Numbered from the stretch's first letter, positions 14,202 to 56,492 are shown. The stretch: 64,000 bases of DNA from Acidobacteria bacterium RIFCSPLOWO2_02_FULL_67_21 (GCA_001767195.1 MEKU01000019.1:64088-128087), one strand, 5' to 3'. The notes: generated by a model not told the origin, from the letters alone. Translations and numbers: made by a program.

Positions 14202-14506
14202 CAGCTGTCGCTGTCCTCATCCGTGGTCTGATGGAAGCGGTCAAGCTGCTTCACGTCGAGGGTGAGCCTCTGAAGGTTCCGGGCGAACGCCGTACCCTGC
14301 AGATTCGGCGGGTCGGCCGCCTTGCGCCGGGCGGCCTCGCGCGCTTCGATCGCATCACCCACGCTGATCGGCAGCCAGCCCCGCCAGTCGCACGCGCGGC
14401 ACCGGTACGGCCGCCGGCCGGTGATTTCCTTGCGCCAGCGCTCCCACCGGCTCCGCGTCCTCGAACGCCGGAGATTGTGCGAGTTACACTTCGGGCACTG
14501 AGACAT
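14201..14506 (-). CDS. Zinc-ribbon small protein (CPxC..CxxC), unknown function
   Basis: MSQCPKCNSHNLRRSRTRSRWERWRKEITGRRPYRCRACDWRGW. ATG 14506 lies 23 nt inside the 3' end of the ligase-family gene. Confidence 0.6.
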   Translation of the reverse strand: MSQCPKCNSHNLRRSRTRSRWERWRKEITGRRPYRCRACDWRGWLPISVGDAIEAREAARRKAADPPNLQGTAFARNLQRLTLDVKQLDRFHQTTDEDSDS

Positions 14507-15908
14507 CGGCGGGCTTTCTCGATGCCGGCATGTTATCACGCGGACTCGGCGTCACCCGGGCTGTCGCGACCGCCGGCGCCAGCGCGATCGCCGCCAGCGT
14601 GCAGAAGAGCAGCGCGTTCACCGGAATCTGGAGGCTGAACTCGAGCGTTTCCTGGATCGCCATTGCCACCAGCCCGACGGCCGAGCCGGCGCGGATCCAG
14701 TAGCCGCGACCCTCCGCGCGCGCCGCGCGCAGGTTCCGGCGGATCGCCGCCGCGAGCACGATGACGGCGACGGCGGCCGGGACGGCCACGAGGACGCCGC
14801 CTTCGGCCAGCAGCTGCACGTAGTCGTTATGGGCCCGCGACATGTGGGAGTCGCGATTCCGCGTCTGATAGAAGAGCATCGCCACCGAATACGTGTTGAG
14901 GCCGGTGCCCGTCCACGGAAACGCGCGGATGACGTCCCAGCCGTCGCGCCAGGCATCCACGCGGCTGGTCAGGTTGTTGTCCTGGAACCATTCGAGGAGC
15001 TCGACTGGGCCGCGCCTGAGGACGGGCGCCAGCAGAACCGTTGCGAGAATGACGAGGCCGATCGCCCGGCGCGCGTGACTGAGACGGCGCCGCGCCAGCA
15101 CGAGCCACGCGAACGCGACGCTGGCGGCGCCGAAGCTGAGGATCGCCGAGCGCGACACGGTCCATACGAGGGACAGGGCGCCGACGAGCACGGCCAGCGC
15201 CATCAGGACGATGCCGCTGGCCTCCCCGGACGAGAGCCATCCCGCGAGCCGCACGCGCGCTGCCTGCCGTCCGGGAAGCGTCCCCTCGATCCGGCCGAAC
15301 AGCCATCCCACAAGGACGGAGAGTGTCATCAGCATCCAGCCGCCGTAATGGTTGCGGTTGACGAACGGGCCGAACACGTTCCCGCGCGCGCTCTCGACCG
15401 GTACCCAGAACCAGTAGACCAGGTTGTTGGTGTGTTCGCGGTTGTAAAGGCTGAACAGCGCCAGCGGCACGGCGAAGATCGCCAGCGCCGGCGGCAGCGC
15501 GCGCAGCGCCTGCGCAGGAAGCAGCGCCGGCATGCCGAGCAGGTAGACACCGAGCGCCCCGAGAGCCAGCAGCGCCACGCGCGTTCTCGCCGGATCGACC
15601 GACAGTGGAAGCCATCCTTCAGCTCCGCCGGGTACGGCCAGGTGATAGCCGGCCGACAGGCTGGCGGTGGCAGGGCTGAGCCACTCGACGAGGCTCTGCG
15701 GCAGCGGCACGAGCTGCACCGAGACGGCGAACCACACCAGCAGCAGCGCCGTGGCGAGCGGGCGCATCTCCGGCGCCACGCCGCCGCGCCGGAGTCCCCA
15801 GAGGCCCATTCCTGCCGCCACGGTGAATAGCGGGACGTAGCCCCAGGCATACACCGCGCCAAAGGCGAGCGTCCCCGCGGCGATGAGCACGACGAGGAAC
15901 AGCGCCAT
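14484..15908 (-). CDS. O-antigen ligase/polymerase family membrane protein (Wzy_C domain)
   Basis: 474 aa, polytopic, with the periplasmic-loop motif SHMSRAHNDYVQLLAEGGVLV. Confidence 0.85.
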   Translation of the reverse strand: MALFLVVLIAAGTLAFGAVYAWGYVPLFTVAAGMGLWGLRRGGVAPEMRPLATALLLVWFAVSVQLVPLPQSLVEWLSPATASLSAGYHLAVPGGAEGWLPLSVDPARTRVALLALGALGVYLLGMPALLPAQALRALPPALAIFAVPLALFSLYNREHTNNLVYWFWVPVESARGNVFGPFVNRNHYGGWMLMTLSVLVGWLFGRIEGTLPGRQAARVRLAGWLSSGEASGIVLMALAVLVGALSLVWTVSRSAILSFGAASVAFAWLVLARRRLSHARRAIGLVILATVLLAPVLRRGPVELLEWFQDNNLTSRVDAWRDGWDVIRAFPWTGTGLNTYSVAMLFYQTRNRDSHMSRAHNDYVQLLAEGGVLVAVPAAVAVIVLAAAIRRNLRAARAEGRGYWIRAGSAVGLVAMAIQETLEFSLQIPVNALLFCTLAAIALAPAVATARVTPSPRDNMPASRKPADVSVPEV

Positions 15909-18885: not shown

Positions 18886-20470
18886 GGGTACAGGACCATA
18901 CGTCGAAGAGGTCGCCACGCTCGACGAGCCGATAGCGCCTCGAGAAGAGATCGCGGAATCGCTCTGGAAATACCGGACGAGACTGATGATAGAAGTTCAC
19001 GAAGAGCCGACTCGGTTCCAGGAAAGGCTTCTGCCCTGATGGGATCAGCCAGGTTCTGGTTTCGCACGCCTCCAGATACTGAAGCGTGGCTTCCGGAATC
19101 CCTACTCCTACCAGCTGGTATTCCTCGAGAGCAAACCGATCCACCGTGTGGGGATGTCCGTCCAAGACGAGCAGTGCGCGGAACAAGGTGGCCTCGTCGA
19201 GCCGCTCCCCATAACCGATTTCGATTGTCCCATCACCATAGCGGCGGGCGATGTCGCGAAGCTCGGCGATCGTCCGGCTATGTCGTGGCACCAGCCCGAA
19301 TTCCCTCCGCACCTGAGACACGGTTCCGCCGCCGGCAAACAAGATGAACGCGAGCAGTGTCAGCGCGAAGGGGGCGGCCAGCGTGGCAATTCTCCGTTCG
19401 GCGGCAGGCCGGGCTTCTCCCGGCAGGAGGGCCCTGCGCCAGAAAAACGCGTGAATGACGAACGGAAGCAGCGGCATCAGGTGCCAGTTCCCCGACCCTA
19501 TCTTGCCTCCCGTCACCGCGGCGATCACCAACGCGATCGCAATCGAGAGGACGTAGACCGACGCCATCGGTTCTGCCGGCCTGCCGGTCGGCCGGACCAC
19601 CAGGACGGGAAGCAACAGCAGCGAGGCCCACTGCAGGTTGCGCGACACAGCGTCGAGGGTCACTCCCTCCCGCGCAACCAACGACAAGAGGTCGATGTAA
19701 TTCGCCAGTGAGACGTTCGGCAACAGAAATGGCAGGAAGAAGACGACCCCGCCGAGAGGCGCGGCCGCGGCCACCGAACGCCATCCATACCGCATCCAGA
19801 CGAGAACGGCCAGTGGCAGCACCGCGCAGGCGGCCGTGAGCTTCAAGTTGGGTACGACGCCGGCGATTACTCCAAGCGTTGACACCGCCACGGCCCGGCG
19901 GTGATGCAGGGCGCCGACGACGCCTGCCGCGGTGCTGGCCACCAGCGATGGATCGGTCGTCGCGTCGAAGCTGCTGAAATGGAAGAACAGCAACGCCAGC
20001 GCGCCGGCACCGAGCCCGAGAATCGCTTCCTCGCGTCTGGCGTACCGGCGGCCTACATAATAGGCGGCCGACAGAGTGATCAGCAGGGCGAGAACGCCCG
20101 TGAGCTTGGCGCTCGTCAACGAGCGACCAAAGACCGCATAGAAGGGAACGAACTTCAGATAGGCGAGCGGGCCGTAGAGCATGCCGTACCGCTGCGCCGC
20201 ATCGAGCTCCGGATAGACCGGCAGTCCTCGCGCCGCGACTGCGCCTGTTGCCGGCCCAACCGCGGAGAAGCCCCAGGGCAACACCGGCCATATCAGGTAC
20301 GCTCCCGCAATCGCCAGCAGGACAGCCACGACCGTGAGCCCGAACCACTTCCAAAGGGTGCGAGATGGCACCAGGCGATCGCCGGCGATCGCGCGTACGG
20401 CGGACGTTGCAAGCAGCATCAGACCGAAGAACAGCAGCGGGAACTGCAGCGCGAGATTGCGAAACGTCAC
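18878..20470 (-). CDS. Polytopic membrane protein with a C-terminal soluble domain (GT-C-like transferase or polymerase candidate)
   Basis: 530 aa with about 11 hydrophobic helices in the first 400 residues, then a soluble tail. I recognise no diagnostic motif. Confidence 0.7.
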   Translation of the reverse strand: MTFRNLALQFPLLFFGLMLLATSAVRAIAGDRLVPSRTLWKWFGLTVVAVLLAIAGAYLIWPVLPWGFSAVGPATGAVAARGLPVYPELDAAQRYGMLYGPLAYLKFVPFYAVFGRSLTSAKLTGVLALLITLSAAYYVGRRYARREEAILGLGAGALALLFFHFSSFDATTDPSLVASTAAGVVGALHHRRAVAVSTLGVIAGVVPNLKLTAACAVLPLAVLVWMRYGWRSVAAAAPLGGVVFFLPFLLPNVSLANYIDLLSLVAREGVTLDAVSRNLQWASLLLLPVLVVRPTGRPAEPMASVYVLSIAIALVIAAVTGGKIGSGNWHLMPLLPFVIHAFFWRRALLPGEARPAAERRIATLAAPFALTLLAFILFAGGGTVSQVRREFGLVPRHSRTIAELRDIARRYGDGTIEIGYGERLDEATLFRALLVLDGHPHTVDRFALEEYQLVGVGIPEATLQYLEACETRTWLIPSGQKPFLEPSRLFVNFYHQSRPVFPERFRDLFSRRYRLVERGDLFDVWSCTHE

Positions 20471-21267
20471 GTGGCGCGCCGGACGGAATCGAACGCATAG
20501 CTCCGGTCATCCAGGAACCGCGGGATCCGCTCATCCCCGATCGGATCGACGGCGACGGCGGCGGTCGAATAGCCAATCTCCCGCAGCAGCGCCAGGAGGC
20601 GGCCACGATCGACGCCGGCGTGCAGTTCCACCACGAGCCGCGGACGCCACCGATCGAGCGCCTCCCGCATGCCGCTCAGCACCTCGACCTCCATCCCCTG
20701 GACGTCCACCTTGACCCCGTGGATCGTCGGCTCGCCCTTGTGCAGCAGCGGCCAGACCCAGTCGAACCGCGCCACCGGTACCGTGACCACCGGCCGCCGT
20801 GCGCGGAGTGGCAGGGTCGAGTCGGCCATCCCGCGTGCAAGCGGGAGACGCCGGATCTCGAGCGCTTCCGGGGATCCCAACCCGAGCGGCACCACCGCGA
20901 TCTGTACGAGGCCATTGAGCTCCCGTCCACGGTCCATGTAGCCAGCCGTGGCTGCCACCGGCTCGAAAGTGAACACCCGGCCGCGTGGGCCGACCATGCG
21001 CGCCAGCGCGAACGCGGTGTAGCCGTAGTGCGCGCCGACATCGAGCCAGGTGTCACCGGGCCGGACGTGGCGCTGGAACCACTCGAGCAGCGCGCGTTCG
21101 GTGCGGCCCATGAGACCGCCGGAATAGTCGTGCCAGGAGGTCACCAGCCACGCGCCACGGAGCGGCCCGCCCAGGATGTGGCGTGGCCGGATTGTGCGCG
21201 GCAGCAACGGTCGGAGCCAGTGCCTCATTCGCGACGCGCGTCGGTCACGACCTGATTCCGGTATCAC
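20467..21267 (-). CDS. FkbM-family methyltransferase
   Basis: WLDVGAHYGYTAFALA..VFTFEPV..IHGVKVDVQGMEVEVL. GTGA overlap upstream and ATGA overlap downstream. Confidence 0.85.
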   Translation of the reverse strand: MIPESGRDRRASRMRHWLRPLLPRTIRPRHILGGPLRGAWLVTSWHDYSGGLMGRTERALLEWFQRHVRPGDTWLDVGAHYGYTAFALARMVGPRGRVFTFEPVAATAGYMDRGRELNGLVQIAVVPLGLGSPEALEIRRLPLARGMADSTLPLRARRPVVTVPVARFDWVWPLLHKGEPTIHGVKVDVQGMEVEVLSGMREALDRWRPRLVVELHAGVDRGRLLALLREIGYSTAAVAVDPIGDERIPRFLDDRSYAFDSVRRAT

Positions 21268-22472
21268 TGACGGCTACGCGTGTCCGCCAGCAGCTCCGCA
21301 TAGATGGTCGCCGTGCGGGCGGCGGTCGCCGTCCATGTGAATTGCGCAGCGCGCTGACGGCCCCGCTGCCGGAGCTCCGCGGCCAGCCCGGTGTCGGTGA
21401 GGATCCGCTCGGTCGCGGCCGCGAGCGCGGACATGTCGCCGGGCGGCACGAGGAGACCCGCCGTACCGACAACTTCCGCGACTGGTGGAATGTCGAACGC
21501 CACGACAGGAGTTCCACAGGCCATCGCCTCCAGCGGCGGCCACCCGAAGCCCTCCCAGGCGGACGGGAACACCAGGACGTCAGCGGCGTTGTACCACTCC
21601 GTGAGAAGCTGGTCCGTTGCCACGTCGCCAAGGTGCCGGAGACAGTCCGCCACGCCAAGCGTTCGGGCGAGGTGCGCCTCGTCCGGCAACAGCGGCGCGC
21701 CGACCCGCAGGAGGACCAGGTCGGGCACGCGCGGGCGCAGGCCGGCAATGGCGTGCAGGAGCGTGGCGGTGTTCTTGTAGCGCCCGGCCGTAGCCACTTG
21801 AAGCACGACGGGCGTCGTGTCCCTCAGGCCGGCTGCCGCGCGTCGGGTGGCTCTCGCATCCGGCAGAAATCTGAACGTGGCGTTCAGCCCGTTCGGCACC
21901 ACCGTGACGCGGCTCGGGTCCACGGCTGTGTACCGTTCGAGCGTCACTTTCGTGGCGGTCGAGACCGCGATGATGCGCCGTGCCTTCGTGAGGTAGGCGA
22001 TCTTCCGCCTGAAGATCCAGGCGGCTCTTGCCGACACCGGCGACGGAATCGCTCCCTGGGCGGCCAGCAGAGGAATGATGTCGTGGCACGTCACGATCGT
22101 GCGGGCGGGATCGAGGCTTCGAATGAGATGCGCGTAGCCCTGGTCGAGGATGTGGAAGACCGCGGCCGAGCGCTGTTTCAGCACACCCGGGTAGGTCACC
22201 CACCGGCACCACGCTCGATCGATTCGGCGCGCCCCGTTGGCGTCGGCGAGTCGCGACAGGTACCGGCGGTCGGGTGGCCGCTCCATCGCGATCGCGAGAC
22301 CATCGCTCGTCGACGCGCGCAGTGCGGCATGCAGTTCTTCCGCATAGCGCTTCATGCTCCGGCTGTCGTCAGAGAGCAGCCCCGGGAGCAGCAGAACGCA
22401 CCGGTTGCCTGCGCCTGCCGGGCTCACGCGGCGGCGAACGCCGCCGCGAATCGGGCGGCAATGGCGTCCCAC
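21264..22472 (-). CDS. Glycosyltransferase family 4 (GT-B)
   Basis: VFPSAWEGFGWPPLEAMACGTPVV. The GTG start and first ~24 codons lie inside direct repeat A. Confidence 0.85.
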   Translation of the reverse strand: MGRHCRPIRGGVRRRVSPAGAGNRCVLLLPGLLSDDSRSMKRYAEELHAALRASTSDGLAIAMERPPDRRYLSRLADANGARRIDRAWCRWVTYPGVLKQRSAAVFHILDQGYAHLIRSLDPARTIVTCHDIIPLLAAQGAIPSPVSARAAWIFRRKIAYLTKARRIIAVSTATKVTLERYTAVDPSRVTVVPNGLNATFRFLPDARATRRAAAGLRDTTPVVLQVATAGRYKNTATLLHAIAGLRPRVPDLVLLRVGAPLLPDEAHLARTLGVADCLRHLGDVATDQLLTEWYNAADVLVFPSAWEGFGWPPLEAMACGTPVVAFDIPPVAEVVGTAGLLVPPGDMSALAAATERILTDTGLAAELRQRGRQRAAQFTWTATAARTATIYAELLADTRSRQ

Positions 22473-22490
22473 GACAAATAGCGATGGAGC
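22401..22490. repeat. Direct repeat A (90 bp), left boundary of the low-GC cassette
   Basis: 86/90 identical to 27253-27342 by hand alignment. It encodes an orphan copy of a GT C-terminus (LHRYLSWDAIAARFAAAFAAA*). Confidence 0.9.
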
Positions 22491-22514
22491 ATAACGCTTG
22501 TTCTCGGCCCCTGC

Positions 22515-22601
22515 TCAGCCCCTTCCCGTACGACAGAAGAGATCGCGGGCGGCCCCGATCAGGAACTTCCCGATCCACGCGGGCCGATAATAGTAGCTCA
22601 T
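22515..22601 (-). CDS. 28-codon ORF translationally coupled to the ACP-like gene (possibly the 5' stub of a gene truncated at the cassette edge)
   Basis: GAGGAGG lies 8 nt upstream of an ATG that overlaps the upstream stop (ATGA). The peptide is MSYYYRPAWIGKFLIGAARDLFCRTGRG. Confidence 0.25.
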   Translation of the reverse strand: MSYYYRPAWIGKFLIGAARDLFCRTGRG

Positions 22602-22915
22602 AGGTGCAGCCTCCTCACTGGTTGGTGTGGTAACCCCAGCATGAGGCTGTTGTTGTCCCTTGTCGATCCCTTCGCGCGATTTAGGCATCGCTCCGCCCGT
22701 GCATGAGTGATGTACAAAGAGATCGTGAGACTTAACTTCTCCATGATCTCTTGTTCGGTGGCAACGATGAGGCTCACCAGCATGAGCGAACCCGGCTTCC
22801 CCTCTGCGCCAAAGACGACCGCGTCAGGAGACAGGTCCAGTCGCTCATCAGGGGACAGTTGCTGATTGATCTCCGTGACGGCGGAAAGAACCGCCGCCAG
22901 CACTCTGTCATCCAT
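22598..22915 (-). CDS. Acyl/peptidyl-carrier-protein-like small protein
   Basis: VFGAEGKPGSLMLVSLIVATEQEIMEKL resembles the ACP/DltC helix-II region, with the Ser of GSL as a candidate phosphopantetheine site. ATG 22915 overlaps the TGA of the radical SAM gene. The C-terminal ~35 residues look atypical. Confidence 0.5.
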   Translation of the reverse strand: MDDRVLAAVLSAVTEINQQLSPDERLDLSPDAVVFGAEGKPGSLMLVSLIVATEQEIMEKLSLTISLYITHARAERCLNRAKGSTRDNNSLMLGLPHQPVRRLHL

Positions 22916-24429
22916 CAAGACGAAGACACCCTGAGGATGTGGGGAGGAAAGGCGCCCTGCATTCCCATGGAGTGCTCGTAACGCGCCGACGCCCGCGCGG
23001 GATTGAATGGAATGTTCAGCGCCTTTCGGACGCCTCGTTCGATTGAGTCCCGGGCCGCGACAAGCTCCGCGCTGCTCATGTAATCCGTAAAGACGAAGGC
23101 CTTGTACCCTCCATCGGGATCGCCTTTGTAGTACTCCGCCACCTCGCTGAAGTCCACGTCATACGCATGAAGACGATCGCCGGTCTTGGGCACCGTGTAG
23201 GTGTACACCCCGGCGAGCTCCTTGTGGGAGACCGCATCGTCGTAGTACGGCGTGCCGGGATAGGTCGTGATGATCGAGCAGTCGAAGTCGGCCGGACGAA
23301 CCTCCAGGAGCCATTCCTGAAGCTCGGCGATGCTCTGGCCGTCTTCACCTGGATGTCCGATGGACATCAAGGCTTTGACCTTTAGGTCATGCCGAGTGGC
23401 GATCTCCATGCATCGAGTATTGTCGTCACGGGCGGCGCGCTTGTTAATGTTCACGAGGATTCGTTGATGTGCCGCCTCGAAGCCCACCAGGAGCCACCGG
23501 AAGCCGGCCCGGTGCATCGCCTCTGCCTGCTGATCGTTGAACAGCTCTGACTTCACGAATCCCCGCAGCCGAAAATCGACGCCGAGCCTGCTCTGCAGAT
23601 CGGCAATCCCATTCATCAGCTCGACCATCGACTTACTGACGTTGAGCTCGTCGTCGTAGAACATGAATCCGGTGTACCCGTAGATGCGGTGCAGCTCTTC
23701 GATCTCATTGACGATCGACTGGCTGGCACGGGTGCGAGTCTGTCGCAGGGTCGCGGAGTTGCGCCCTCCGCAGAAACCGCAGCCGAACGGGCATCCGAGC
23801 TGAGCGATCAGGCTCACAGCGTCCCGTCCCTCGATCTGATACCTGTAGCTGCTCATGTCCACGAGATGACGCGCCGGCAACGGCAGGCTGTCGTATGAGC
23901 TGTCGGTGAGAAAGAGGTGGCCCTTCGGGACATCGGCATCGACGAGCGGGTCGGTCATCTTCAATGCTTCGAACACCGCCAGCTCGCCGTCGCCTGCCAC
24001 CAGGACATCCGCCAGCTCTCTCAGCCGGTCAAATGCCGCGTGCCCTCGGCCTATGGTGTTCAGCTTGGCCTCGCGCTTGCGAGCGGCATTGACCAGCGTG
24101 ACGTGGGGTCCGCCGAGAAGAATGCGTGCGTCCGGCCTGACGTCCCGAATCCGTTCGATGACGGAGCGAGCCGCCGGAAGCTGAGGCGTCGTGGCCGTGA
24201 GGCCACAAATGGTTGCGGCTGACCCTTTGGCGTGATCGCCCGCGGCCTCGAGATAATTCTCAATTCCGGAAAGATCCAGCACCTCGACCTCGTGGCCGGC
24301 ACGTTCAAGCACTGCCGCCACGCGCAGAATGCCCAGGCTGACGAACACGCGCTCGTCAAGGAGGAATACCGACGGGGGAATGATCAGGCAGACCGTCAAT
24401 CGACAACTCGGTACTTCAAGAAGCTCCAC
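22915..24429 (-). CDS. B12-binding-domain radical SAM protein (class B)
   Basis: The N-terminal cobalamin-binding-like Rossmann domain (VCLIIPPSV..LGILRVAAVLERAGHEV) is followed by the cluster motif CPFGCGFC (CxxxCxxC). Alternative TTG start at 24399 overlaps the GT2 stop (TTGA). Confidence 0.85.
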   Translation of the reverse strand: MELLEVPSCRLTVCLIIPPSVFLLDERVFVSLGILRVAAVLERAGHEVEVLDLSGIENYLEAAGDHAKGSAATICGLTATTPQLPAARSVIERIRDVRPDARILLGGPHVTLVNAARKREAKLNTIGRGHAAFDRLRELADVLVAGDGELAVFEALKMTDPLVDADVPKGHLFLTDSSYDSLPLPARHLVDMSSYRYQIEGRDAVSLIAQLGCPFGCGFCGGRNSATLRQTRTRASQSIVNEIEELHRIYGYTGFMFYDDELNVSKSMVELMNGIADLQSRLGVDFRLRGFVKSELFNDQQAEAMHRAGFRWLLVGFEAAHQRILVNINKRAARDDNTRCMEIATRHDLKVKALMSIGHPGEDGQSIAELQEWLLEVRPADFDCSIITTYPGTPYYDDAVSHKELAGVYTYTVPKTGDRLHAYDVDFSEVAEYYKGDPDGGYKAFVFTDYMSSAELVAARDSIERGVRKALNIPFNPARASARYEHSMGMQGAFPPHILRVSSS

Positions 24430-25118
24430 AGCACTTTCCCGGTATGGTACCAGCGCATCTTCTTGCCCTGCTCGTACGTACGCCCGTAATAGGCGATGGG
24501 CACTTCGTAGACAACAAGATTCTTTTTCAGGAGCTTGGCCAGGAACTCTGCGTCGAACTCAAATCCATCGCTGTTGAACGAGAGGCCCTCGAGGCATGAA
24601 CGACGGAACATCTTGTAGCACGTGTACACGTCGTGCAGGGTGGTGTTATACAGAACTCGCGTGACCAGTGTAATCAGGTAGTTGCCCACATAGTGCCAGA
24701 AGTAGTACGCGCGCTGTGGTTTCGCGCCGCTCACCCGCGAACCGAGGACGAGGTCGGCATCGGCTTTCACGATGGGCTCGAGAAGGTCGGTAAAGTCCTG
24801 CGGGTCATACTCGAGATCCGCATCCTGAATGACGATGACGTCGCCGGTCGCGAGGGCGAAACCTGCCTTCAACGCCGCGCCCTTGCCGCGGTTCTGTTCA
24901 AGCAGGATCAGCTTGTCGACCTTGTGCTGCAGCGACGTCAGCACGTCACGCGTACCGTCACTAGATCCGTCGTCGACGACGATGATTTCCATCCGAAGAC
25001 CGACGGCGCGCACGCGATCGATGAGCGTCGCGACGGTTCCCTTTTCGTTGAAGACAGGAATGACGACCGAAACCTTCACGCGATTGACGTCAAGAAGCAC
25101 GGCACGTGTGGTCGTCAC
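24396..25118 (-). CDS. Glycosyltransferase family 2, polyprenol-phosphate hexosyltransferase-like (Dpm1/ArnC/GtrB type)
   Basis: VSVVIPVFNE..IIVVDDGSSDGT..NRGKGAALKAGF..IQDADLEYDP. Short 240-aa soluble form. The start is either GTG 25118 or internal GTG 25079 (giving MKVSVVIPVFNE). Confidence 0.85.
   Translation of the reverse strand: MTTTRAVLLDVNRVKVSVVIPVFNEKGTVATLIDRVRAVGLRMEIIVVDDGSSDGTRDVLTSLQHKVDKLILLEQNRGKGAALKAGFALATGDVIVIQDADLEYDPQDFTDLLEPIVKADADLVLGSRVSGAKPQRAYYFWHYVGNYLITLVTRVLYNTTLHDVYTCYKMFRRSCLEGLSFNSDGFEFDAEFLAKLLKKNLVVYEVPIAYYGRTYEQGKKMRWYHTGKVLWSFLKYRVVD
25080..25118 (-). pseudogene. Possible vapC (PIN toxin) 5' stub, 13 codons in frame with the GT2
   Basis: MTTTRAVLLDVNR resembles the M..LLDVNVL start of PIN toxins. 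It shows the classic 4-nt overlap (GTGA) with the vapB stop. Confidence 0.35.
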
Positions 25119-25342
25119 GGCTCGTCTCTGAGGCGATTCACCGGTGTGAGGGTCGGCTTCGGGCTGCCTGCCGGTCGCCGTCGCAGCAGCGGAACGCCAT
25201 TGCGGAGTGTCGCGCGGGTTTTCGGCTCCAGCGCCTTTCGTGCCAGTTCGGACAACACCTTCCCGGCAGTTGTGCCGCGATGCTCGGCTAATTCCTTGGC
25301 GGCCTGCAGCACATCAGCATCGATATCGAGGGTGGTACGCAT
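25115..25342 (-). CDS. vapB: Type II antitoxin, VapB-like (orphan)
   Basis: MRTTLDIDADVLQAAKELAEHRGTTAGKVLSELARKAL..RNGVPLL..TLTPVNRLRDEP matches my memory of VapB-family antitoxins that pair with PIN toxins. Confidence 0.7.
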   Translation of the reverse strand: MRTTLDIDADVLQAAKELAEHRGTTAGKVLSELARKALEPKTRATLRNGVPLLRRRPAGSPKPTLTPVNRLRDEP

Positions 25343-25480
25343 GGAGACTCATCCCGCATCACGCATCAGATGTCAATGAGTAACGCGATGTTCGACGCGC
25401 GGAGCCGCCTGCGTGAAATATCCAGTGAGAAGGTGGGACGTGGTCTGGTCTGTAGGAATAGGAACTGAACCGCCCGCTCG
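25343..25480 (-). promoter_or_regulatory. Candidate promoter/operator region upstream of vapB
   Basis: On the minus strand a perfect TTGACA (plus 25371-25376) is followed by tandem heptamers TGATGCG TGATGCG GGATGAG, ending 5 nt before the ATG. The spacer is lower in GC. Confidence 0.3.
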
Positions 25481-27163
25481 TTATACTTGAGCGCCTCCGG
25501 CTTCGCTCTTGCCGAAAAGACCCTCCAGCCGTCGTCGCAGCAACAGCTTATGCCTGAACAGGATGTGGTGCAGTGACGCTTCAGCTCGCGATTCTTCTCT
25601 CCCGCGAACCAGGTTAACCAACGTGTGCACCAGCCGCCACGGACGGCGAAGGTACATCGTGCCATAGAACAGCGTGAAGTACAGGTAGCGCGCCCACACG
25701 AGATGCCTGTCCTTCACATGTGGGTTGTACGACTTGGCGAAAGCGAGATCCGAGAACGGGATGAGGCTGTCAAAATACTTGTCTGAGGGCGGTTCGATCT
25801 TGTTCTGCTTGACGAGCTCGTAATACAACTCCGATCCGGGATACGGCACGTACGGGATGAAGCTCGAGTCAGAAACACCCATCCACGCGCACTTGATCCC
25901 GAACTTGAAAGTCTCCCACATCTCGTAGGGAGTCTCGTCGGGAAAGGCGAAGATGATGTTGATCTTCAGATTGAATCCACGCTTGATGGCGGCCCGCGCA
26001 GATTCTTCCAGCCGGGGAAGCTTGACCTGTTTCTTGATCCGCTTCAGGACTGCAGGTGAGCCGCTTTCCGGCGCGTAGTTCATATTGCGACAGCCTGAGT
26101 CCCAAAGCTTGTCGACGACTTCAGCATCAATCGCCTCGGAACGCGTGCCGCTGGGGAGCTGCCAACTGAACTTCAACCCGCTTTTCCCGACGAGGTCACA
26201 GAACTCGACAATCCACTGCTTCTTGACGATGGCAGTGAGGTCGTAGAGATCGAAGTTCTCCGCATTGTACTTGTCGAGGTACTTCTTGATCTCGGCGAGC
26301 ACCTTTTCAGGAGACCGGGCTTCCCATTTGGTCCCCCACATGTACGGGCTCGAACAGAACGTGCACTGGAACGGACATCCACGCGTAGCCAACAGTGGCA
26401 TGCTGCGTCCCCGGTTGACGCCGTGGCCGAAGCCTCTGCTCAGGTAGGTTTCGATGGGCAGATCATCCCAGTAGGGCTCCGGTATGTTATCGATGGCCCT
26501 GATTCGGCCCCTCGCCGGATTGACCTGCACCGAACCGTCCGCCTGTCGGTAGGCGACACCGTTCAGCGCCTGGATGTCCCTCCCGGCGAAATAAGTGTTC
26601 ACGATGTCAAGCAGTGTTTCTTCGCCCTCGCCGCGCACGCACAGATCCAGCGCCCGGCAATCCTGCAGCACGTATTCCGTACACGCAGTGATGTGCTCGC
26701 CACCCGCGACGATGAGCGCTTTCGGGAAGCGTTGCCTCAGGCGGTTGATGATTTTCTTGTCGTACGTCCACGCACTTGAAAACATCGAGGAAAAACCGAT
26801 TAGCTGGGCGCTCGCGTCAACCCGATCCACTATGTCGTCGACCGTGAGCCCCTGGGCGAGGCCGACGGTGCCCGGCATCGGCGTGAGACGATCCACATCC
26901 TCCCCGAGCGCGTCGATAGCCTGCGGAATGTGACCGTTCGCATGAAGGGTGCCGGAAAGATAGGCAGTGGACAGCGGCGGGGTAATCGCCGTGCTCAGAG
27001 AATATTTCGACAGCACCTGGGGTGGCCGAATGAGCACAACGCCGCTCACACCTCCCCCTCTGGCGGAGCCTGGCGACTGTCGCGATGAAAGGTCAATGGT
27101 AGCATCGGGGTCGGCTGAGGATACTCTCCCAGCCTCGGTACTGTCACGCGTTGCGTTAATCAT
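25481..27163 (-). CDS. B12-binding-domain radical SAM protein (class B), second copy of the class
   Basis: VVLIRPPQV..AQLIGFSSMF..ALIVAGGEH (B12-like domain), then CPFQCTFC. ATG 27163 has an AAGGA SD. The track start 27313 lies inside repeat B and the GT gene. Alternative ATG at 27238. Confidence 0.85.
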   Translation of the reverse strand: MINATRDSTEAGRVSSADPDATIDLSSRQSPGSARGGGVSGVVLIRPPQVLSKYSLSTAITPPLSTAYLSGTLHANGHIPQAIDALGEDVDRLTPMPGTVGLAQGLTVDDIVDRVDASAQLIGFSSMFSSAWTYDKKIINRLRQRFPKALIVAGGEHITACTEYVLQDCRALDLCVRGEGEETLLDIVNTYFAGRDIQALNGVAYRQADGSVQVNPARGRIRAIDNIPEPYWDDLPIETYLSRGFGHGVNRGRSMPLLATRGCPFQCTFCSSPYMWGTKWEARSPEKVLAEIKKYLDKYNAENFDLYDLTAIVKKQWIVEFCDLVGKSGLKFSWQLPSGTRSEAIDAEVVDKLWDSGCRNMNYAPESGSPAVLKRIKKQVKLPRLEESARAAIKRGFNLKINIIFAFPDETPYEMWETFKFGIKCAWMGVSDSSFIPYVPYPGSELYYELVKQNKIEPPSDKYFDSLIPFSDLAFAKSYNPHVKDRHLVWARYLYFTLFYGTMYLRRPWRLVHTLVNLVRGREESRAEASLHHILFRHKLLLRRRLEGLFGKSEAGGAQV

Positions 27164-27252
27164 TAAGTCCTTGTTGATACACTGCTTGCGGTCGGAAACA
27201 ACCTCGACCAGAGCAACAGCAAGGCGCCGGGTATTCATCCCTGCGGTTCGGC

Positions 27253-27342
27253 CCGGTTGCCTGCGCCTGCCGGGTTCACGCGGCGGCGAACGCCGCCGCA
27301 AATCGGGCGGCAATGGCGTCCCACGAAAAATAGCGATGGAAC
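27253..27342. repeat. Direct repeat B (90 bp), right boundary of the low-GC cassette
   Basis: Covers the native last 21 codons and stop of 27276..28391 plus 23 nt downstream. 86/90 identical to 22401-22490. Confidence 0.9.
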
Positions 27343-28391
27343 GCGGCCAGGTTGCGCTGGTGCGCAGCGGACCACCGCGAGTCGTCGGTGAGGAGGCGGA
27401 TCAGCTCGGTTGCCAGGCCATCCCGATCTCCCGGAGCGACCACGACGACGCCCGCCTCGGTGATCGGATGGCCGGTCTGGGGGCCGGCGTACGCCACCAC
27501 AGGCAACCCGCACGCGATGGCGGCGATGGCGGTGGTTCGCCCGCCCGAAATGGCCCCGCGAACGAACAACAGCGCGTCGGCTGCAATGAGGCGGCGGCTC
27601 AGCTCCTCGGCCGGCAGCACGCCGGTCACGGCGAGATCCACGTGTGCGGGCGCCAGCGCCGCCTGCAGCAGGGCGCTCGTGTTCTCGGCACTTCGCCCCA
27701 GCACGACGATCCGCAGTTGCGGGACCCGTTCGGCAACCCGCTGCGCCACGTAGGCGATGTCGGATACTTCCTCGGCTTCCGTCCGTTCCCCAGCGCGCAG
27801 GCAGAAGACCGCAATGGTTCTGTCGCCGCTCCGTCGCTCAACTGTCGATGCGTCGTGCGGCATGTCTTCGAACGCCGGCACATTCGGCCCGACAGGGATC
27901 AAGACCGCTTTGTGCGGGTTTCCTGGCAGCCACGGCACGCGCTCCACGGGGATGGTATGGACGGAGAGATGGCTGATGCGGTAGGCAAGACGCATGACGT
28001 GGTGCTGCCAGGCGCGCCGAACGCGGTGGCGAAGCCGCTCACCTGGATAGCCTGTCGGATCGTGAAACACGATCGCGACGCGCGCGCCGCGGTGCCGCAG
28101 CACACTGAGGAGTGCGAGAAACGCCAGCGGCAGGCCGCGCCACGACCAGTGGAGCGCCGTGTACTGCACGACGACCCAGTGGCCGCTCCAGTGGTGGCTC
28201 TGCCGCCAGAGCTGGTGCAGCGCTCGCGCCCATCCGATCTCGTCCCAGGGCACCTGCACCAGGGTGGTACGCCACCCCTGACGCGTCAGCGCCTCACCGA
28301 GCAGCGTCGAGTAGCTTTCGATCGCATCGGTGCCGGCAGGGAGATTCAGGCGGCGGCCCAGAAGCGCCACCACCGCCGCGCCAGGGTTCAT
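27276..28391 (-). CDS. Glycosyltransferase (GT-B fold, GT4/GT1-like)
   Basis: LLFVRGAISGGRTTAIAAIACGLPVVAY is a C-terminal GT-B donor-binding pattern. ATG 28391 overlaps the TGA of the upstream gene (ATGA). Confidence 0.75.
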   Translation of the reverse strand: MNPGAAVVALLGRRLNLPAGTDAIESYSTLLGEALTRQGWRTTLVQVPWDEIGWARALHQLWRQSHHWSGHWVVVQYTALHWSWRGLPLAFLALLSVLRHRGARVAIVFHDPTGYPGERLRHRVRRAWQHHVMRLAYRISHLSVHTIPVERVPWLPGNPHKAVLIPVGPNVPAFEDMPHDASTVERRSGDRTIAVFCLRAGERTEAEEVSDIAYVAQRVAERVPQLRIVVLGRSAENTSALLQAALAPAHVDLAVTGVLPAEELSRRLIAADALLFVRGAISGGRTTAIAAIACGLPVVAYAGPQTGHPITEAGVVVVAPGDRDGLATELIRLLTDDSRWSAAHQRNLAAFHRYFSWDAIAARFAAAFAAA

Positions 28392-29422
28392 TTGCGCCGG
28401 TGCGCAGCTCGCTCGAGTTTGGTCCCCCATTCACCGACGAGCGTCAGCGGCTGGATCCGGCCGAGCACGCTCGCAACCGCGGGACGACGCGCGGTCCGAT
28501 CCGGTCCGCCATCCACGGAGGTACACGTCCGGCAGACGCCGGTTTTCGGTCCCGGCGAGACCAGGGCGAGGCGAGCCGGGGCGAGGTCCCGATAGAAGTC
28601 GAACAGGGAGTAGCCCGGCCGGGACAGGTCGCCGATGACCGCGGTCGCGTGCTCCGGCGCGTCTGAACGGACTTCGCAGCACAGCATCCCCTTGCCGTTG
28701 AAGTCCACGACGACGGAATGCAGCGGACGGAAGCAGGCGGCGCGGCGCTGGTACGCCCCGAGCTCCGGGACGGTCACCAGGCCTCCACGCGTCGAGATGC
28801 CGGTGGCGTAGGAATAGTGAGGGACGCCCATCGTGGCGCATACGGTCGTTCCCTCACAGTTGTACTGCCACTTCGATCCATCTTCGACGCAGACGAGCCC
28901 TGTTCGCGCCTGAAACTGCCTCAACGCGCGATCGAGCTCGCCTGGATCCCTCTCCTTGCCGTCGGGGAGATACAGGTTGAGCCACAGTCGATCGAGCTTC
29001 GACGCTTCCAGCAGCTCGAGCTTGGCGCGATCCAGGTAGTCACCGTTGCTGATCACCACGAGCTGGGCATGGGGGAGCCGCCGGCGCGCTTCGGCGAGCC
29101 GATCGAAGAACGACGGGTGCGCCATCGGCTCGTGATAGCGCGCCCAGATGAACATCTGGTCGTAGCGGATGCCTTCGAGCGCGGACAGGATCTTCTCGAA
29201 CAGCTCGTCCGTCATCAGCTGCGTGGTGCTTCGCCGATCCAACTGCGCATTCGGGCAGAACGAGCACGTACGATTGCAGTAATTGTGATTCTCGATTTCG
29301 ACCTGGCGGACATACCGGCGGAACAGCCCACGCACGGTCTCATCGTCGATATCCGCGCGGAAGAGATCGGCCGGCAGGGTATTGGCCACGAACGACTTCC
29401 CGAGGTTTCTCATCACTCGCAT
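28388..29422 (-). CDS. Radical SAM protein with a partial SPASM (twitch-like) C-terminal domain
   Basis: CNRTCSFC (CxxxCxxC). C-terminal CFRPLHSVVVDFNGKGMLC fits Cx12Gx4C, and CRTC follows, but no further Cys. A TAAGGAGGAG SD lies 7 nt upstream of ATG 29422. Confidence 0.85.
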   Translation of the reverse strand: MRVMRNLGKSFVANTLPADLFRADIDDETVRGLFRRYVRQVEIENHNYCNRTCSFCPNAQLDRRSTTQLMTDELFEKILSALEGIRYDQMFIWARYHEPMAHPSFFDRLAEARRRLPHAQLVVISNGDYLDRAKLELLEASKLDRLWLNLYLPDGKERDPGELDRALRQFQARTGLVCVEDGSKWQYNCEGTTVCATMGVPHYSYATGISTRGGLVTVPELGAYQRRAACFRPLHSVVVDFNGKGMLCCEVRSDAPEHATAVIGDLSRPGYSLFDFYRDLAPARLALVSPGPKTGVCRTCTSVDGGPDRTARRPAVASVLGRIQPLTLVGEWGTKLERAAHRRK

Positions 29423-29436: not shown

Positions 29437-30885
29437 TTACCCCACGCGCCGCTGCGCCCCGGATGCGTGCGGCTGCGCCCGACGCTCGGTAATGAGTGCC
29501 GCCATCCGGTCTGCGGGCGTTCGTCGGGCTGCGATCGATTCCTGCACCGCGGGCTTCGCCGCAGCAAGCCGGGGCAGGCTGAGGAGCACACCCGCCCAGA
29601 ACCAGTACAGCACGCGCGCTGGAAGCGTGCGTAGTGGACTGTAGGGCCAGCTATAGATAAGGATGGCCAGTTGAAACGCCAAAAGTGCAGCCGCCAGCAA
29701 TTCCATGTCGGTTCCGCGACACGCGCGAAGGGCCTTGAGGCTGTAGTACGTGATCGCGGCGAGGAAGAGGTAGAAGAGCACGAGCCCCGGCACGCCCGTT
29801 TCGTACACCAGCGCTGCGATAAAATACTCGCCCCACTTGATTGATTCTGCACGACCGCCCCATACGCTCGGGTTGGCAGGCCCCTCTACACGCCCAACAC
29901 CCGGCGAAGCGATCCCCAACCCGCTGCCGAGAATCGGCGTCCGCAGGGCGTCGATCAGGGTGAGTGTCGGGTTTTCATAAAGCGTCCTGTTGAGATCCTC
30001 GGAAATCGAGGCGACCCGCCGTCCGAATGCGTCCCCAGCCACATCGGCGACCAGCCAGCCTGCCGCCGCCATCACGCACACGGCAACGGCCATTTTCGTT
30101 ACCGCGCGCCCGCGTCGCGTGAGCACGACCATGAGCGGGAGCGTCAGCGCCAGCAGCACAATTGCCGCCCGCTGTGTATTCACGACGAGAGCGATGGTGG
30201 TGCCTGCCAGGCCAAGCACGAAACAGACCCGGTTCCAGAGCGCGGCGCTCATGCCAAGCAAGCCGATGGTGAACGGGACGCTGAACAGGATGTAGGAGCC
30301 CAGGCTCCCCACGTGGGAAAACGTTCCGGGAGGGCGAATGATATCCCCCGGGGTGGTATACCCGAGTGGTGTCTCGAAAATCGCGCCGCTCATCGAGGAG
30401 ACACGGGTAAACTGCCACACCGTCAGGCCGGCAATGAGCACGAGCTGCAGGGCGATGAGTGACGTGACACTCTCGAGTTCACGACGCGTTGTGAATGCGC
30501 GATAGCCAATCCATACCAGCGGGAGGGGAAGCAGAAACGTGCGAAGCCCGATCAGGGTCGGCAGGAGGCCGGTTTCGTAAACGCTGTACGGCACGAGCAG
30601 AAGCGCCCAGATGACGAAGGGAATGGCAAAGCGAATCATTGACGGAGGTCCGAACTGGCCCGGAGCATTCAGTGCTCGAACACCAAAGATCAGGTAGAGA
30701 CCCACCATTTGAAATTCGTAGATCAGGACACTCAGGTTCGAGTCGTCGAATACATTCAACTGGAACCAGCCCTGGACGGGAATCCAGAGCAACAGCAGCC
30801 AGACGGCCGCCCGCATGTGGAGCGACGCGAGCAACAGCCAGACGAGGGCTGCGAGCAAGCCCAGAATTACGGTCGCATCCGTCAC
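29437..30885 (-). CDS. Wzy-type O-antigen polymerase/ligase-like membrane protein (second copy of the class)
   Basis: 482 aa, polytopic, with a large loop followed by KWGEYFIAALVYETGVPGLVLF (Wzy_C-like). GTG start with a GGAG SD. Confidence 0.7.
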   Translation of the reverse strand: MTDATVILGLLAALVWLLLASLHMRAAVWLLLLWIPVQGWFQLNVFDDSNLSVLIYEFQMVGLYLIFGVRALNAPGQFGPPSMIRFAIPFVIWALLLVPYSVYETGLLPTLIGLRTFLLPLPLVWIGYRAFTTRRELESVTSLIALQLVLIAGLTVWQFTRVSSMSGAIFETPLGYTTPGDIIRPPGTFSHVGSLGSYILFSVPFTIGLLGMSAALWNRVCFVLGLAGTTIALVVNTQRAAIVLLALTLPLMVVLTRRGRAVTKMAVAVCVMAAAGWLVADVAGDAFGRRVASISEDLNRTLYENPTLTLIDALRTPILGSGLGIASPGVGRVEGPANPSVWGGRAESIKWGEYFIAALVYETGVPGLVLFYLFLAAITYYSLKALRACRGTDMELLAAALLAFQLAILIYSWPYSPLRTLPARVLYWFWAGVLLSLPRLAAAKPAVQESIAARRTPADRMAALITERRAQPHASGAQRRVG

Positions 30886-30958
30886 TCAACGCTCCTGTGT
30901 CGCTGTAGGGTACGACAAAGATGCGATGTCACGCAAAGCCGTGCGGCTCGCGGTCCCT

Positions 30959-32701
30959 TCATTCCCTGCGGATGACGAGCGAGCCCACCACGAGCATGTC
31001 CATCTTCGTGCGCAGAAAGCAGTCAAGCGCTTCGGCCGGCCGGCACACAATCGGCTCGTTCTCATTGAACGACGTGTTCAACAGGATCGGTACGCCGGTC
31101 CGAGCGTTGAAGGCACAGAGAAGACGGTGAAAGAGCGGATTGGTGTCGGCCGTGACGGTCTGCAGCCGGCCCGTGCCGTCGATGTGCGTGACGGCAGGAA
31201 TCTCGGCGCGCTTGTCGGCTCGGACGGGGTACACGGTGATCATGAAGGGATCGGGATAACTTCCGTCGAAGTAGTCCGGCGCCCGCTCGGCAACGATCGA
31301 GGGGCAGAACGGCCGGAACGGCTCGCGCCGCTTGATCCGCGCGTTCAGAATGTCCTTCATCTCGGCACGCCGCGGGTCCGCCAGGATGCTCCGGTTGCCG
31401 AGCGCACGGGGCCCCCACTCCATTCGGCCCTGGAACCAGCCGACGATGCGTCCCTGTGCCAGTGCGTCGGCCGTGTGCCTGCACAGCACGTCCGGGTCGC
31501 CGCATTCGCTCACCGTACATCCCCGATCGCGCAACTCGGCGGCGCGCTGCCGTACCTCGACCCGAGCCACCTCGTCGTTGAACGTCGGCCCCCAGTACGC
31601 ATGGTTCATCACGAACGCGCGCGGCCGGCCCAACGCACGGTGCCACGTGTCGAAGGCCGCCCCGATCGCGGTGCCGGCGTCGCCGGCTGCCGGCTGGATG
31701 TACACGTCGGTGAACGGCGTGTGCGAGCGGATCTTGCCGTTCGCCACGCTGTTGAAGGCGACGCCGCCGGCCAGGCACAACGCCCGGGCGCCGGTCTGCC
31801 GGTGCAACCGATCGAGCAGCCAGAAATAGACCTCTTCAGTCACCGCCTGAAGCGACGCGGCGAGGTTGCGGTGCCTCTGCTCGATCGGTTCGTCACGGCC
31901 GCGAGCCGAGCCGAAACGCCGGACCAGCGCGTCGGAATAGATCCGGCCGATCACCGGCTGGCCGGAGTCCCACGTCATCGCGATGCCCGCCGTATGGTGC
32001 AGGAAGTAGTCGAGATCGAGCCGGTATCCCGAGCCGTCGGTCTGCAGGATCCGGCGGAACTCCGGCAGGAACTCGGGCTCGCCGTACGGCGCCAGCCCCA
32101 TCACCTTGTACTCGTCGCCGTAGCTGGAAAAGCCGAGGTACTGGGTGATGGCCGTGTAGAACGTCCCAACCGAGTGCGGAAACATCACCTTGCCGGTGAC
32201 GCGGATGTCGACGCCGCGTCCGTGCCCCCACATGGCGCTCAGAAAATCGCCGAACCCGTCGATGGAGAGGCACGCAGCCTCCTCGAATGGAGAGACGAGA
32301 AACGCAGAGGCCATGTGCGACCGGTGGTGCTCGACCCGGTGCTGCCGGGCGCGAACGGCGCGGACGTCGACATCGAGCGATTCGGCCAGGGCCGGCCGGA
32401 TGTCACGAATCCGCACGGCGTGGGTAATCCGGTCGCGCAGGACCCTGGGACGCCTCGAGACGGCAAACAGGATCTTGCGCGCGAGGTATGCGTGTGGATT
32501 GTGTGAGACGGCAATGTGATCCACATCGCCGATCCCGACGCCGGCCGCCTCGAGGCAGTACCGCGCGGCGGCAGCGGGAAAGCCCGCGGCGTGCTTGAGG
32601 CGGTTGAAGCGCTCCTCTTCGGCTGCAGCGACGAGCAGGCCATCGACGACGATGGCGGCGCTCGCGTCACCGTGGTAGGCGTTGATGCCGAGCACGATCA
32701 T
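30959..32701 (-). CDS. Carbamoyltransferase (NodU/CmcH/TobZ family)
   Basis: MIVLGINAYHGDASAAIVVDGLLVAAAEEERFNRLKH plus the C-terminal YrdC-like/carbamoyltransferase half. 580 aa. Confidence 0.9.
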   Translation of the reverse strand: MIVLGINAYHGDASAAIVVDGLLVAAAEEERFNRLKHAAGFPAAAARYCLEAAGVGIGDVDHIAVSHNPHAYLARKILFAVSRRPRVLRDRITHAVRIRDIRPALAESLDVDVRAVRARQHRVEHHRSHMASAFLVSPFEEAACLSIDGFGDFLSAMWGHGRGVDIRVTGKVMFPHSVGTFYTAITQYLGFSSYGDEYKVMGLAPYGEPEFLPEFRRILQTDGSGYRLDLDYFLHHTAGIAMTWDSGQPVIGRIYSDALVRRFGSARGRDEPIEQRHRNLAASLQAVTEEVYFWLLDRLHRQTGARALCLAGGVAFNSVANGKIRSHTPFTDVYIQPAAGDAGTAIGAAFDTWHRALGRPRAFVMNHAYWGPTFNDEVARVEVRQRAAELRDRGCTVSECGDPDVLCRHTADALAQGRIVGWFQGRMEWGPRALGNRSILADPRRAEMKDILNARIKRREPFRPFCPSIVAERAPDYFDGSYPDPFMITVYPVRADKRAEIPAVTHIDGTGRLQTVTADTNPLFHRLLCAFNARTGVPILLNTSFNENEPIVCRPAEALDCFLRTKMDMLVVGSLVIRRE

Positions 32702-45164: not shown

Positions 45165-45424
45165 CCGCTGACGTCCAGTTCCACGATCATGTCCCACGCG
45201 AGCCACACGTATGGCGACACAAATCCACCATGCGGACGGCCGCGTCCATCCCGCGCCATAGTGTCACGTCGTGACTCGGCAAAAAGCGTCACAGGAATTG
45301 TAACCCCGGCGCACTGAAAACCCATACCGTCCAGACCCTACCCCTGCCGTTATGCGCACTTACGGCCGCACGCGGGCGGGACGGACCCGGGAAAGTGAGA
45401 AAACAGGCCGTATTCAGCCCGGAC

Positions 45425-56490: not shown

Positions 56491-56492
56491 GC

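Follow-up and report, generated by a model that had tools for sequence, protein, structure and literature searches.

A low-GC biosynthetic cassette between two copies of a gene junction in an acidobacterial exopolysaccharide locus

The stretch of DNA analysed here in full (the window) comprises 64,000 nucleotides (nt) of Acidobacteria bacterium RIFCSPLOWO2_02_FULL_67_21 (GCA_001767195.1, MEKU01000019.1:64088-128087) and holds a Wzx/Wzy-type exopolysaccharide (EPS) locus of an acidobacterial population. The locus type was assigned by Pfam scans, the genes from approx. 8.3 to 45.2 kb are all encoded on the minus strand, and the nearest named homologues belong to Vicinamibacterales and to Acidobacteria metagenome-assembled genomes (MAGs). 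In the middle of this locus, two glycosyltransferase (GT) genes, GT-B and GT-A, are separated by a cassette of low GC content, which is bounded by two copies of an 88-nt direct repeat. In the order of transcription, a polymerase-like gene and the radical SAM gene rSAM3 are followed by GT-B, repeat copy B, a leader, rSAM1, a vapB-like open reading frame (ORF), the glycosyltransferase gene GT2, rSAM2, a carrier-protein-like gene, a truncated ORF (X′), repeat copy A, GT-A, and an FkbM methyltransferase gene. The features that define the junction are as follows.

27276..28391, minus strand: GT-B, an intact GT4-type glycosyltransferase of 371 amino acids (aa), the upstream neighbour of the presumed insertion
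27253..27340, minus strand: repeat copy B, which ends functional GT-B with its last 21 codons and TGA (27276-27278)
22489..27252, minus strand: the cassette, probably inserted, 4,764 bp, 59.2% GC, with genes co-oriented with the surrounding EPS operon
22424..22492, minus strand: a mini-ORF of 22 codons, MLHRYLSWDAIAARFAAAFAAA*, whose ATG is formed by the last three cassette bases, in frame with the GT-B remnant, and whose TGA overlaps the GT-A start (GTGA)
22401..22488, minus strand: repeat copy A, an orphan GT-B 3′ end followed by the functional GT-A start
21264..22427, minus strand: GT-A, an intact GT4 glycosyltransferase of 387 aa, the downstream neighbour of the presumed insertion

An initial annotation of this sequence had described the repeat as two 90-nt copies identical at 86 positions. 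This is correct, although the core is 88 nt long (22401-22488 vs. 27253-27340; 85/88 identical) and reaches 86/90 only when it is stretched to 90 nt. With up to three mismatches allowed, the 88-mer occurs twice in the window and not once in 100 shuffles; thus, it does not behave as a dispersed repeat, a possibility that the annotation had raised. Copy B completes GT-B, the true 3′ end of which reads ..FHRYFSWDAIAARFAAAFAAA*, and continues past the stop codon with a 23-nt remnant of the GT-A start (GTG AAC CCG GCA GGC GCA GGC AAC CGG), which runs into the cassette and leaves a dead GT-A piece consisting of the start and eight codons. The flank upstream of copy B resembles the empty-site relatives described below, whereas the downstream flank does not, and this match bears out the earlier view that copy B is the genuine GT-B end plus 23 nt. 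In copy A, the orphan GT-B end (..LHRYLSWDAIAARFAAAFAAA*) retains the last 21 codons and the stop, with the Phe of the conserved FSW motif changed to Leu, and the remnant TGA overlaps the functional GT-A GTG at 22427; here, the downstream flank resembles the empty-site relatives and the upstream flank is cassette. The annotation was therefore right to regard copy A as an orphan duplicate that provides the GTG of GT-A, but the copy supplies approx. 9 GT-A codons from GTG 22427, where orthologues start, and not approx. 24. The 402-aa GT-A ORF that begins at 22472 was rejected as an extension artefact, as orthologues begin at the GTG overlapping the upstream stop. In composition, the duplicated 88 bp consist of 65 nt of GT-B, its stop codon, and 20 nt of GT-A, so that GT-B retains its C-terminus and GT-A retains its start codon together with 65 nt of native sequence ahead of it.

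In a five-way alignment, both 88-mers of the window contain an extra GCC codon that is absent from all three empty-site relatives, and their GC content is 68-72%, which together argue that the duplicated DNA belongs to the host lineage and was not imported with the approx. 60% GC cargo. Two of the three mismatches between the copies fall in the non-functional half of a copy, and the third is synonymous in functional GT-B; comparison with outgroups shows at least one derived base that is unique to either copy. These mismatches do not discriminate between mechanisms.

An empty site, the search for which had been proposed in the initial annotation, was found in three metagenome contigs (L012, L008, and L013), in which GT-B runs straight into GT-A and the junction holds no alternative cargo. 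In L012 (JGI 3300031965; GT-B 78% identical in aa), rSAM3′, GT-B′, and GT-A′ follow one another, the last two overlapping by GTGA and the N-terminus of GT-A′ being intact; L008 (Logan SRR22388059; GT-B 81%) has the same GTGA junction, and L013 (Logan SRR22387935; GT-B 62%) has TGA, 6 nt, and GTG. In blastn comparisons, each relative tracks GT-B to approx. 27269-27310 and resumes at 22483-22490 into GT-A. Two further contigs are uninformative on occupancy: L023 ends 40 nt past GT-B, and in L024 (GT-B 52% identical) the next gene is not a GT-A orthologue. The three relatives thus support the earlier proposal that the two GT genes were once adjacent and overlapping, but the ancestral overlap is the 4-nt GTGA formed by the GT-B TGA and the GT-A GTG at 22427. 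In the five-way alignment, the geometry is that of an insertion with target duplication. Since each copy keeps a remnant of the other gene, the GT-B/GT-A junction must be older than the duplication, which makes the event a gain in this lineage and not a loss in the relatives.

Among the relatives, the locus is indel-prone at gene boundaries. L008 has lost approx. 790 bp of rSAM3 and shows a frameshift or a deletion of approx. 27 codons near the GT-A′ N-terminus (L008 3428-3433, 4830-4870). L013 lacks rSAM3, and L003 and L004 lack GT-B, so that rSAM3′ leads directly into GT-A′.

The compositional difference expected in the initial annotation is present. The cassette has 59.2% GC compared with 67.5% for the rest of the window and is its lowest 4.76-kb stretch, approx. 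3.7 standard deviations under the mean; the hand-counted value of 50-53% was, however, too low, as 500-nt windows range from 55 to 65%. The raw tetranucleotide distance is likewise largest in the window at the cassette (0.33 vs. 0.158 ± 0.038). The GC content at third codon positions is 68-75% in cassette genes and 80-83% in the flanking GT-A and GT-B, with other genes of the locus also going down to 75-76%. The contents of the cassette, from its upstream to its downstream edge, are listed below.

27050..27252, minus strand: leader, 203 nt, non-coding, 58% GC, at the upstream cassette edge
25481..27049, minus strand: rSAM1, a class-B (B12-binding) radical SAM enzyme of 522 aa with the cluster motif CPFQCTFC
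25115..25342, minus strand: vapB-like ORF, 75 aa, MRTTLDIDADVL...
24396..25118, minus strand: GT2, a glycosyltransferase of the AglJ/PpgS (polyprenyl-phosphate sugar synthase) type
22915..24399, minus strand: rSAM2, a class-B radical SAM enzyme of 494 aa with the motif CPFGCGFC
22598..22915, minus strand: carrier-protein-like gene, 105 aa
22601-22515, minus strand: truncated ORF X′, 28 codons, MSYYYRPAWIGKFLIGAARDLFCRTGRG*, a gene stump at the downstream cassette edge

Two class-B radical SAM genes, a GT2, and a truncated ORF had been recognised earlier, and all four assignments stand. Both radical SAM enzymes match PF02310 and PF04055 above the cut-offs, and GT2 likewise exceeds its Pfam cut-off; no NCBIfam equivalog reaches its cut-off for the cassette's radical SAM enzymes. 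The leader is regarded as non-coding since the closest rSAM1 homologue (in L014) starts at the equivalent of GTG 27049 and has stop codons upstream. Relatives of rSAM1 are distant (at most 64% identity), the best metagenome match being a 64% one on a 1.7-kb contig. To judge from its homologues, GT2 probably starts at GTG 25079, which would give the same length of 227 aa. X′, which begins with MSYYYRPAWIGKFLIGAARDLF, is well initiated, with GAGGAGG as its ribosome-binding site and an ATGA where it overlaps the gene before it, but it is cut after 28 codons.

The two remaining assignments of the initial annotation, an orphan vapB and a gene resembling acyl carrier proteins (ACPs), were only partly upheld. 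The vapB-like ORF scores 16.9 bits against VapB_antitoxin (PF09957), below the cut-off of 23.4; the resemblance is confined to the MRTTLDID-type N-terminus, as in an 82-aa VapB-like ORF of the contig L010, and no PIN or toxin gene lies beside it, the next gene being GT2. Assignment as a VapB antitoxin was rejected on account of this sub-threshold match and the missing VapC/PIN partner. The carrier-protein-like gene belongs to a family of approx. 100-aa proteins (201 representatives) with a conserved G-x-DSL motif, the profile of which matches ACP and D-alanyl carrier chains weakly (E = 0.007-0.8); PF00550 matches 1/24 members. The cassette copy has GSL for DSL, with Gly replacing a nearly invariant Asp, and lacks the conserved C-terminal third with its helix, the sequence there being unrelated in every frame. 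A frameshift that would restore the C-terminus was looked for and none was found, and a single-sequence AF2 model (pLDDT 48) was too poor for a fold search. From these changes, the gene is probably degenerate.

A homology search with the cassette, as the annotation had suggested, located its GT2-rSAM2 block in other glycan loci with different flanks but did not yield a donor lineage. L009, L010, and L011 share only this module with the 64-kb window, their flanks being unrelated, and in all three the pair lies in other glycan loci next to toxin-antitoxin or insertion sequence (IS) genes. Compared with L009 and L010, GT2 is 90-92% and rSAM2 89-91% identical at the protein level, with DNA identity of 84-86%; the pair is 76% identical in DNA to that of L011. 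In L009 and L010, the homologous modules are preceded by a conserved remnant of the vapB-like ORF, namely its 3′ part; relative to L010, one whole GT2 gene is absent between the vapB remnant and GT2 of the cassette. The cargo is thus a mosaic of at least three blocks with illegitimate joints and ragged outer ends, i.e., a leader at one edge and a gene stump at the other. The pair of a GT2 (approx. 227 aa) and a B12-dependent radical SAM enzyme (approx. 500 aa) is very widespread and conserved: 4,674 database matches were obtained at E<=1e-10, the best 120 of which are all at least 62% identical. It is present in L009, L010, L011, L021, and L022, protein identities run from 60 to 91% among thousands of database matches, and its named hosts include Polyangiaceae, Planctomycetota, Elusimicrobiota, and Nitrospira MAGs. 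The rSAM2 family has thousands of matches that are at least 60% identical; for rSAM2 itself, a scan of genome contigs gave a Nitrospira MAG as the sole match (62%), and the best match in IMG/VR, on one contig, was 54%. No curated family or known reaction covers the pair, and literature searches returned no such pair in O-antigen loci.

L010 itself contains a 77-nt direct repeat (739-815 vs. 1809-1885; 94% identical) around approx. 1 kb of DNA with a vapB-like gene, a truncated vapC, and a DUF3368 gene, located directly upstream of the module homologous to vapB-GT2-rSAM2. One copy forms the C-terminal portion of a gene for a PemK-associated antitoxin; the second is an orphan fragment. This repeat may be a second long-duplication footprint in such loci.

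The machinery that might account for the insertion was sought by several routes. Pfam scans of the cassette ORFs and of the ORFs between 8.3 and 50.7 kb detected no integrase, transposase, resolvase, or rve domain. No inverted repeats of at least 24 nt were found in 20-30 kb and none at either cassette end; tRNA and Rfam scans of the window gave no match, and neither did a comparison of the cassette DNA with plasmids and phages. The earlier statement that integrase, transposase, and terminal inverted repeats are lacking and that the mechanism is unclear therefore stands. An IS-bounded composite or DDE transposon was rejected (no transposase, no terminal inverted repeats, and a duplication of 88 bp instead of a short fixed length), as was an integron cassette (no attC-type inverted repeat at the ends and no integrase). 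A structured att/attC-like site was also dismissed, as the 9-bp GC hairpin of the 88-mer, which encodes AAAFAAA, folds no better than shuffles (z = -0.92). For an integrative element, flanking target-derived repeats are present, and an edge recombinase is absent from the scanned ORFs.

Taken together, the empty sites, the reciprocal gene remnants, the composition, and the occurrence of the GT2-radical SAM core elsewhere with unrelated flanks make it likely that compositionally different DNA was inserted, with an 88-bp target duplication, between the formerly adjacent GT-B and GT-A; in this respect, the initial proposal that foreign DNA entered the overlap and that the duplication kept both GT genes intact is supported. 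The ragged ends of the cargo and the host-type repeats make a single recombinase-independent duplicative insertion the most economical origin, although as a mechanism it is offered tentatively, with a probability that we place just short of even. In such an event, a linear fragment from another glycan locus would have been captured in the GT-B/GT-A junction. This might have happened at a staggered double-strand break, if overhangs of approx. 88 nt were filled in and the ends were then joined, or during replication, through a template switch in which synthesis returned to the host template 88 nt upstream of its point of exit. The three mismatches between the repeats would then have arisen after insertion.

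Among the alternatives, two deny that an insertion took place in this lineage at all. The arrangement is not an assembly artefact: it recurs, with the same three mismatches, in three further full-length assemblies from different pipelines and samples (NCBI GCA_001767515.1 MELD01000038.1, JGI 3300025311, and ENA ERZ27254842), which are at least 99.9% identical over 13-21 kb and carry a few single-nucleotide polymorphisms of their own, in and outside the cassette. A chimera, in which a low-GC segment from another organism was joined via the shared 88-mer, might be suspected in metagenome-derived data, the more so as one assembly (L007) stops 226 nt into the cassette. However, that break is not at the repeat and is uninformative, the repeat copies differ at three positions, unique sequence lies on both sides of each junction, and the repeat, at 88 nt, is below the k=141 to which the k141_ prefix of the ENA contig names points, so that the probability of a chimera is close to negligible. 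The other possibility is that the cassette is ancestral and that L008, L012, and L013 were emptied by recombination between the 88-mers, which would leave a single 88-mer, the same as a never-occupied site, and would suit an indel-prone locus (rSAM3 deleted in L008 and L013; GT-B absent in L003 and L004). Nonetheless, the other-gene remnant in each copy requires a junction older than the duplication, the site is empty in three outgroups in succession, and the cargo has internal scars and a composition unlike that of the host; such a history is very improbable.

Two further alternatives accept the insertion and differ as to how it came about. Integration of the att type into the GT-B 3′ end, in which the cassette would be a remnant or a cis-mobilisable island, with the 88-mers as attL and attR and a tyrosine or serine recombinase that was lost or is encoded elsewhere, would explain long direct repeats that duplicate a gene 3′ end, the classic signature of such islands. 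A layout of this kind is described for e14 in icd with its icdC remnant (PMC13626634). The orphan antitoxin-like gene in the cassette and the toxin-antitoxin and IS genes that adjoin the homologous modules in L009-L011 would also fit. It is nevertheless difficult to reconcile with the absence of a recombinase from the cassette and approx. 15-20 kb on either side, with random-looking edges (a stump and a leader), and with two 88-mers that are both of the host type and share the lineage-specific codon insertion. Moreover, the site is empty in three relatives and holds alternative cargo in none, the 88-mer core has no match in IMG/VR, and the cargo consists of co-oriented, operon-type biosynthetic genes without element genes; att-type integration is thus considered distinctly unlikely. 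In a Campbell-type event, a circle carrying one 88-mer and the cargo would have come from an occupied sibling strain and entered a naive junction by a single RecA crossover, for which 88 bp of homology is sufficient. A single crossover of this kind yields exactly the observed topology, and, if the three mismatches represent donor-recipient divergence, it accounts for copies that are both of the host lineage yet differ by 3.4%. It would explain the spread of the cassette within the lineage but not its first origin, as it presupposes an earlier event of the very kind to be explained; furthermore, the near-identical assemblies all have the same three mismatches, and neither a hybrid repeat nor an empty allele was seen. 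This route is considered unlikely, though somewhat less so than att-type integration.

Several observations weigh against a recombinase-independent insertion of foreign DNA as set out above. The recombinase negative covers the cassette and the window ORFs scanned from 8.3 to 50.7 kb, microhomology amounts to at most 1-2 nt at both junctions, and, to our knowledge, no well-documented process in bacteria generates a target duplication of this length. Divergence that already existed between a donor and a recipient 88-mer would be an equally good explanation of the three mismatches, as the Campbell-type and att-type alternatives would have it. The empty-site relatives are different species-level lineages (62-81% aa identity), and none is from within the same population. 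With regard to foreignness, the tetranucleotide signature of the cassette is not extreme after normalisation for base composition, and the GC content of GT2 and rSAM2 homologues is 58-62% in all of the hosts examined; to some extent, low GC is general to the EPS locus and to this gene family. The synonymous divergence (dS) of GT2 and rSAM2 from L009 and L010 is 0.5-0.85, approx. that of the flanking genes from their own orthologues, with a ratio of non-synonymous to synonymous divergence (dN/dS) of 0.07. A recent transfer, read from the 89-91% protein identity, was therefore rejected; the high identity reflects strong constraint and is not in itself evidence of recent transfer. From these values, L009 and L010 are not the direct donors.

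The event is of a known kind: a mosaic polysaccharide locus has acquired a module horizontally, with duplicated target sequence at its flanks. What is unusual is the length of the duplication, its position over a stop/start overlap, and the lack of a recombinase in the scanned ORFs. The closest structural parallel is provided by e14 and phage 21 in E. coli icd, where the island is flanked by repeats that duplicate the gene 3′ end and leave the icdC pseudogene (PMC13626634). As there, one copy in the present locus completes a functional gene, the other remains beyond the insert as a C-terminal pseudogene fragment, and recombination between the copies would restore a single hybrid gene. However, e14 has its own integrase and brings its own copy of the gene end, whereas here no recombinase was found and both copies are of the host type; in addition, the present repeat spans a two-gene junction and rescues both neighbours, and the cargo is biosynthetic with ragged ends. 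The duplication also recalls the target-site duplications of DDE transposons and IS elements, in that the insert is flanked by a direct duplication of DNA that is single-copy in the empty site. Those duplications are usually 2-14 bp long and accompanied by a transposase and terminal inverted repeats, neither of which accompanies the 88 bp found here.

Illegitimate or homology-facilitated recombination and end-joining capture share with this case the non-homologous DNA, the arbitrary intragenic breakpoints, and the lack of element machinery, and the cargo bears several scars of this type. Such routes are, however, usually described as replacing or deleting recipient DNA and not as duplicating 88 bp, and no clear microhomology is present at either junction. 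The setting itself is that of mosaic O-antigen, capsule, and EPS loci, with their horizontally exchanged modules of lower GC: the insertion site occupies the middle of a Wzx/Wzy-type locus, relatives differ in whether they possess rSAM3, GT-B, and the cassette, and the GT2-radical SAM pair is found again, with other neighbours, elsewhere among glycan loci. Homologous recombination between conserved flanks and IS elements are the usual explanations for exchange in such loci, and a clean junction duplication that marks the insertion point, as seen here, is not their customary trace. It might be speculated that the 88-bp duplication was left by an undescribed process, either independent of a recombinase or acting in trans, that places operon-compatible cassettes in the gene overlaps of glycan loci; this is improbable, but, if true, the overlap would be duplicated in such a way that the neighbours and their translational coupling survive, and the 77-nt repeat of L010 would be a second footprint.

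Judged by dN/dS, both the flanking GTs and the cargo enzymes look functional: the ratio is 0.07-0.12 for the cargo and 0.2-0.36 for the flanks (0.26-0.36 for GT-B and 0.2-0.3 for GT-A), which indicates purifying selection. The cassette is co-oriented with the EPS operon and contains no convincing internal terminator, so that joint transcription with the operon is probable; in 21-29 kb, scans for promoters and terminators gave results no better than shuffled sequence. The AglJ/PpgS-like GT2 and both B12-dependent radical SAM enzymes probably serve to attach a sugar to the EPS repeat unit or to modify one in it. No Shine-Dalgarno-like motif was seen ahead of the GT-A GTG, which makes termination-reinitiation at GTGA plausible. 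The mini-ORF created at the junction may thus preserve translational coupling into GT-A, and this would explain why the copy of the GT-B end has been retained.

The locus offers an unusually clean, reconstructible case of a polysaccharide operon gaining chemistry, in which one can see the empty site, the exact place of insertion, the duplicated junction, and the scarred mosaic cargo. It shows that insertion into a 4-nt stop/start overlap is tolerable when the junction is duplicated, and it draws attention to a widespread pair of a GT2 and a B12-dependent radical SAM enzyme that travels between glycan loci. No new type of element is revealed; the long duplication without a recombinase is the sole puzzle.

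Apart from many GT4 genes, the surrounding EPS locus contains the following features.

42624-45206, minus strand: Wzc-like kinase
38567-39451, minus strand: Wza-like exporter
36894-38507, minus strand: initiating sugar transferase
32698-34044, minus strand: Wzx flippase
30959-32701, minus strand: carbamoyltransferase
29437-30885, minus strand: polymerase-like membrane protein
28388-29422, minus strand: rSAM3
20467-21267, minus strand: FkbM methyltransferase
14484-15908, minus strand: Wzy_C protein

Other repeats were noted in the window. A 54-nt direct repeat (11564-11617 vs. 13497-13550; 83% identical, 1.9 kb apart) lies in or near the minus-strand EPS ORFs 11761-13167 and 13482-14201 and may be another duplicated gene end. 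A 34-nt repeat (30907-30940 vs. 36125-36158; 82% identical), with the consensus AGGGTACGACAAA..G....GTC.CGCAAAGCC, has one copy in the spacer that precedes the polymerase-like gene, the second being located within a GT4 ORF. Finally, arrays of 8-nt units (ATTTACGA / ATTGACGA), with 3-4 head-to-tail copies each, occupy two AT-rich intergenic spacers 3.4 kb apart (53040-53122 and 56477-56537). The array at 53040-53122 is followed by a 30-nt inverted copy (93% complementary), and both arrays look like iterated binding sites of a regulator.

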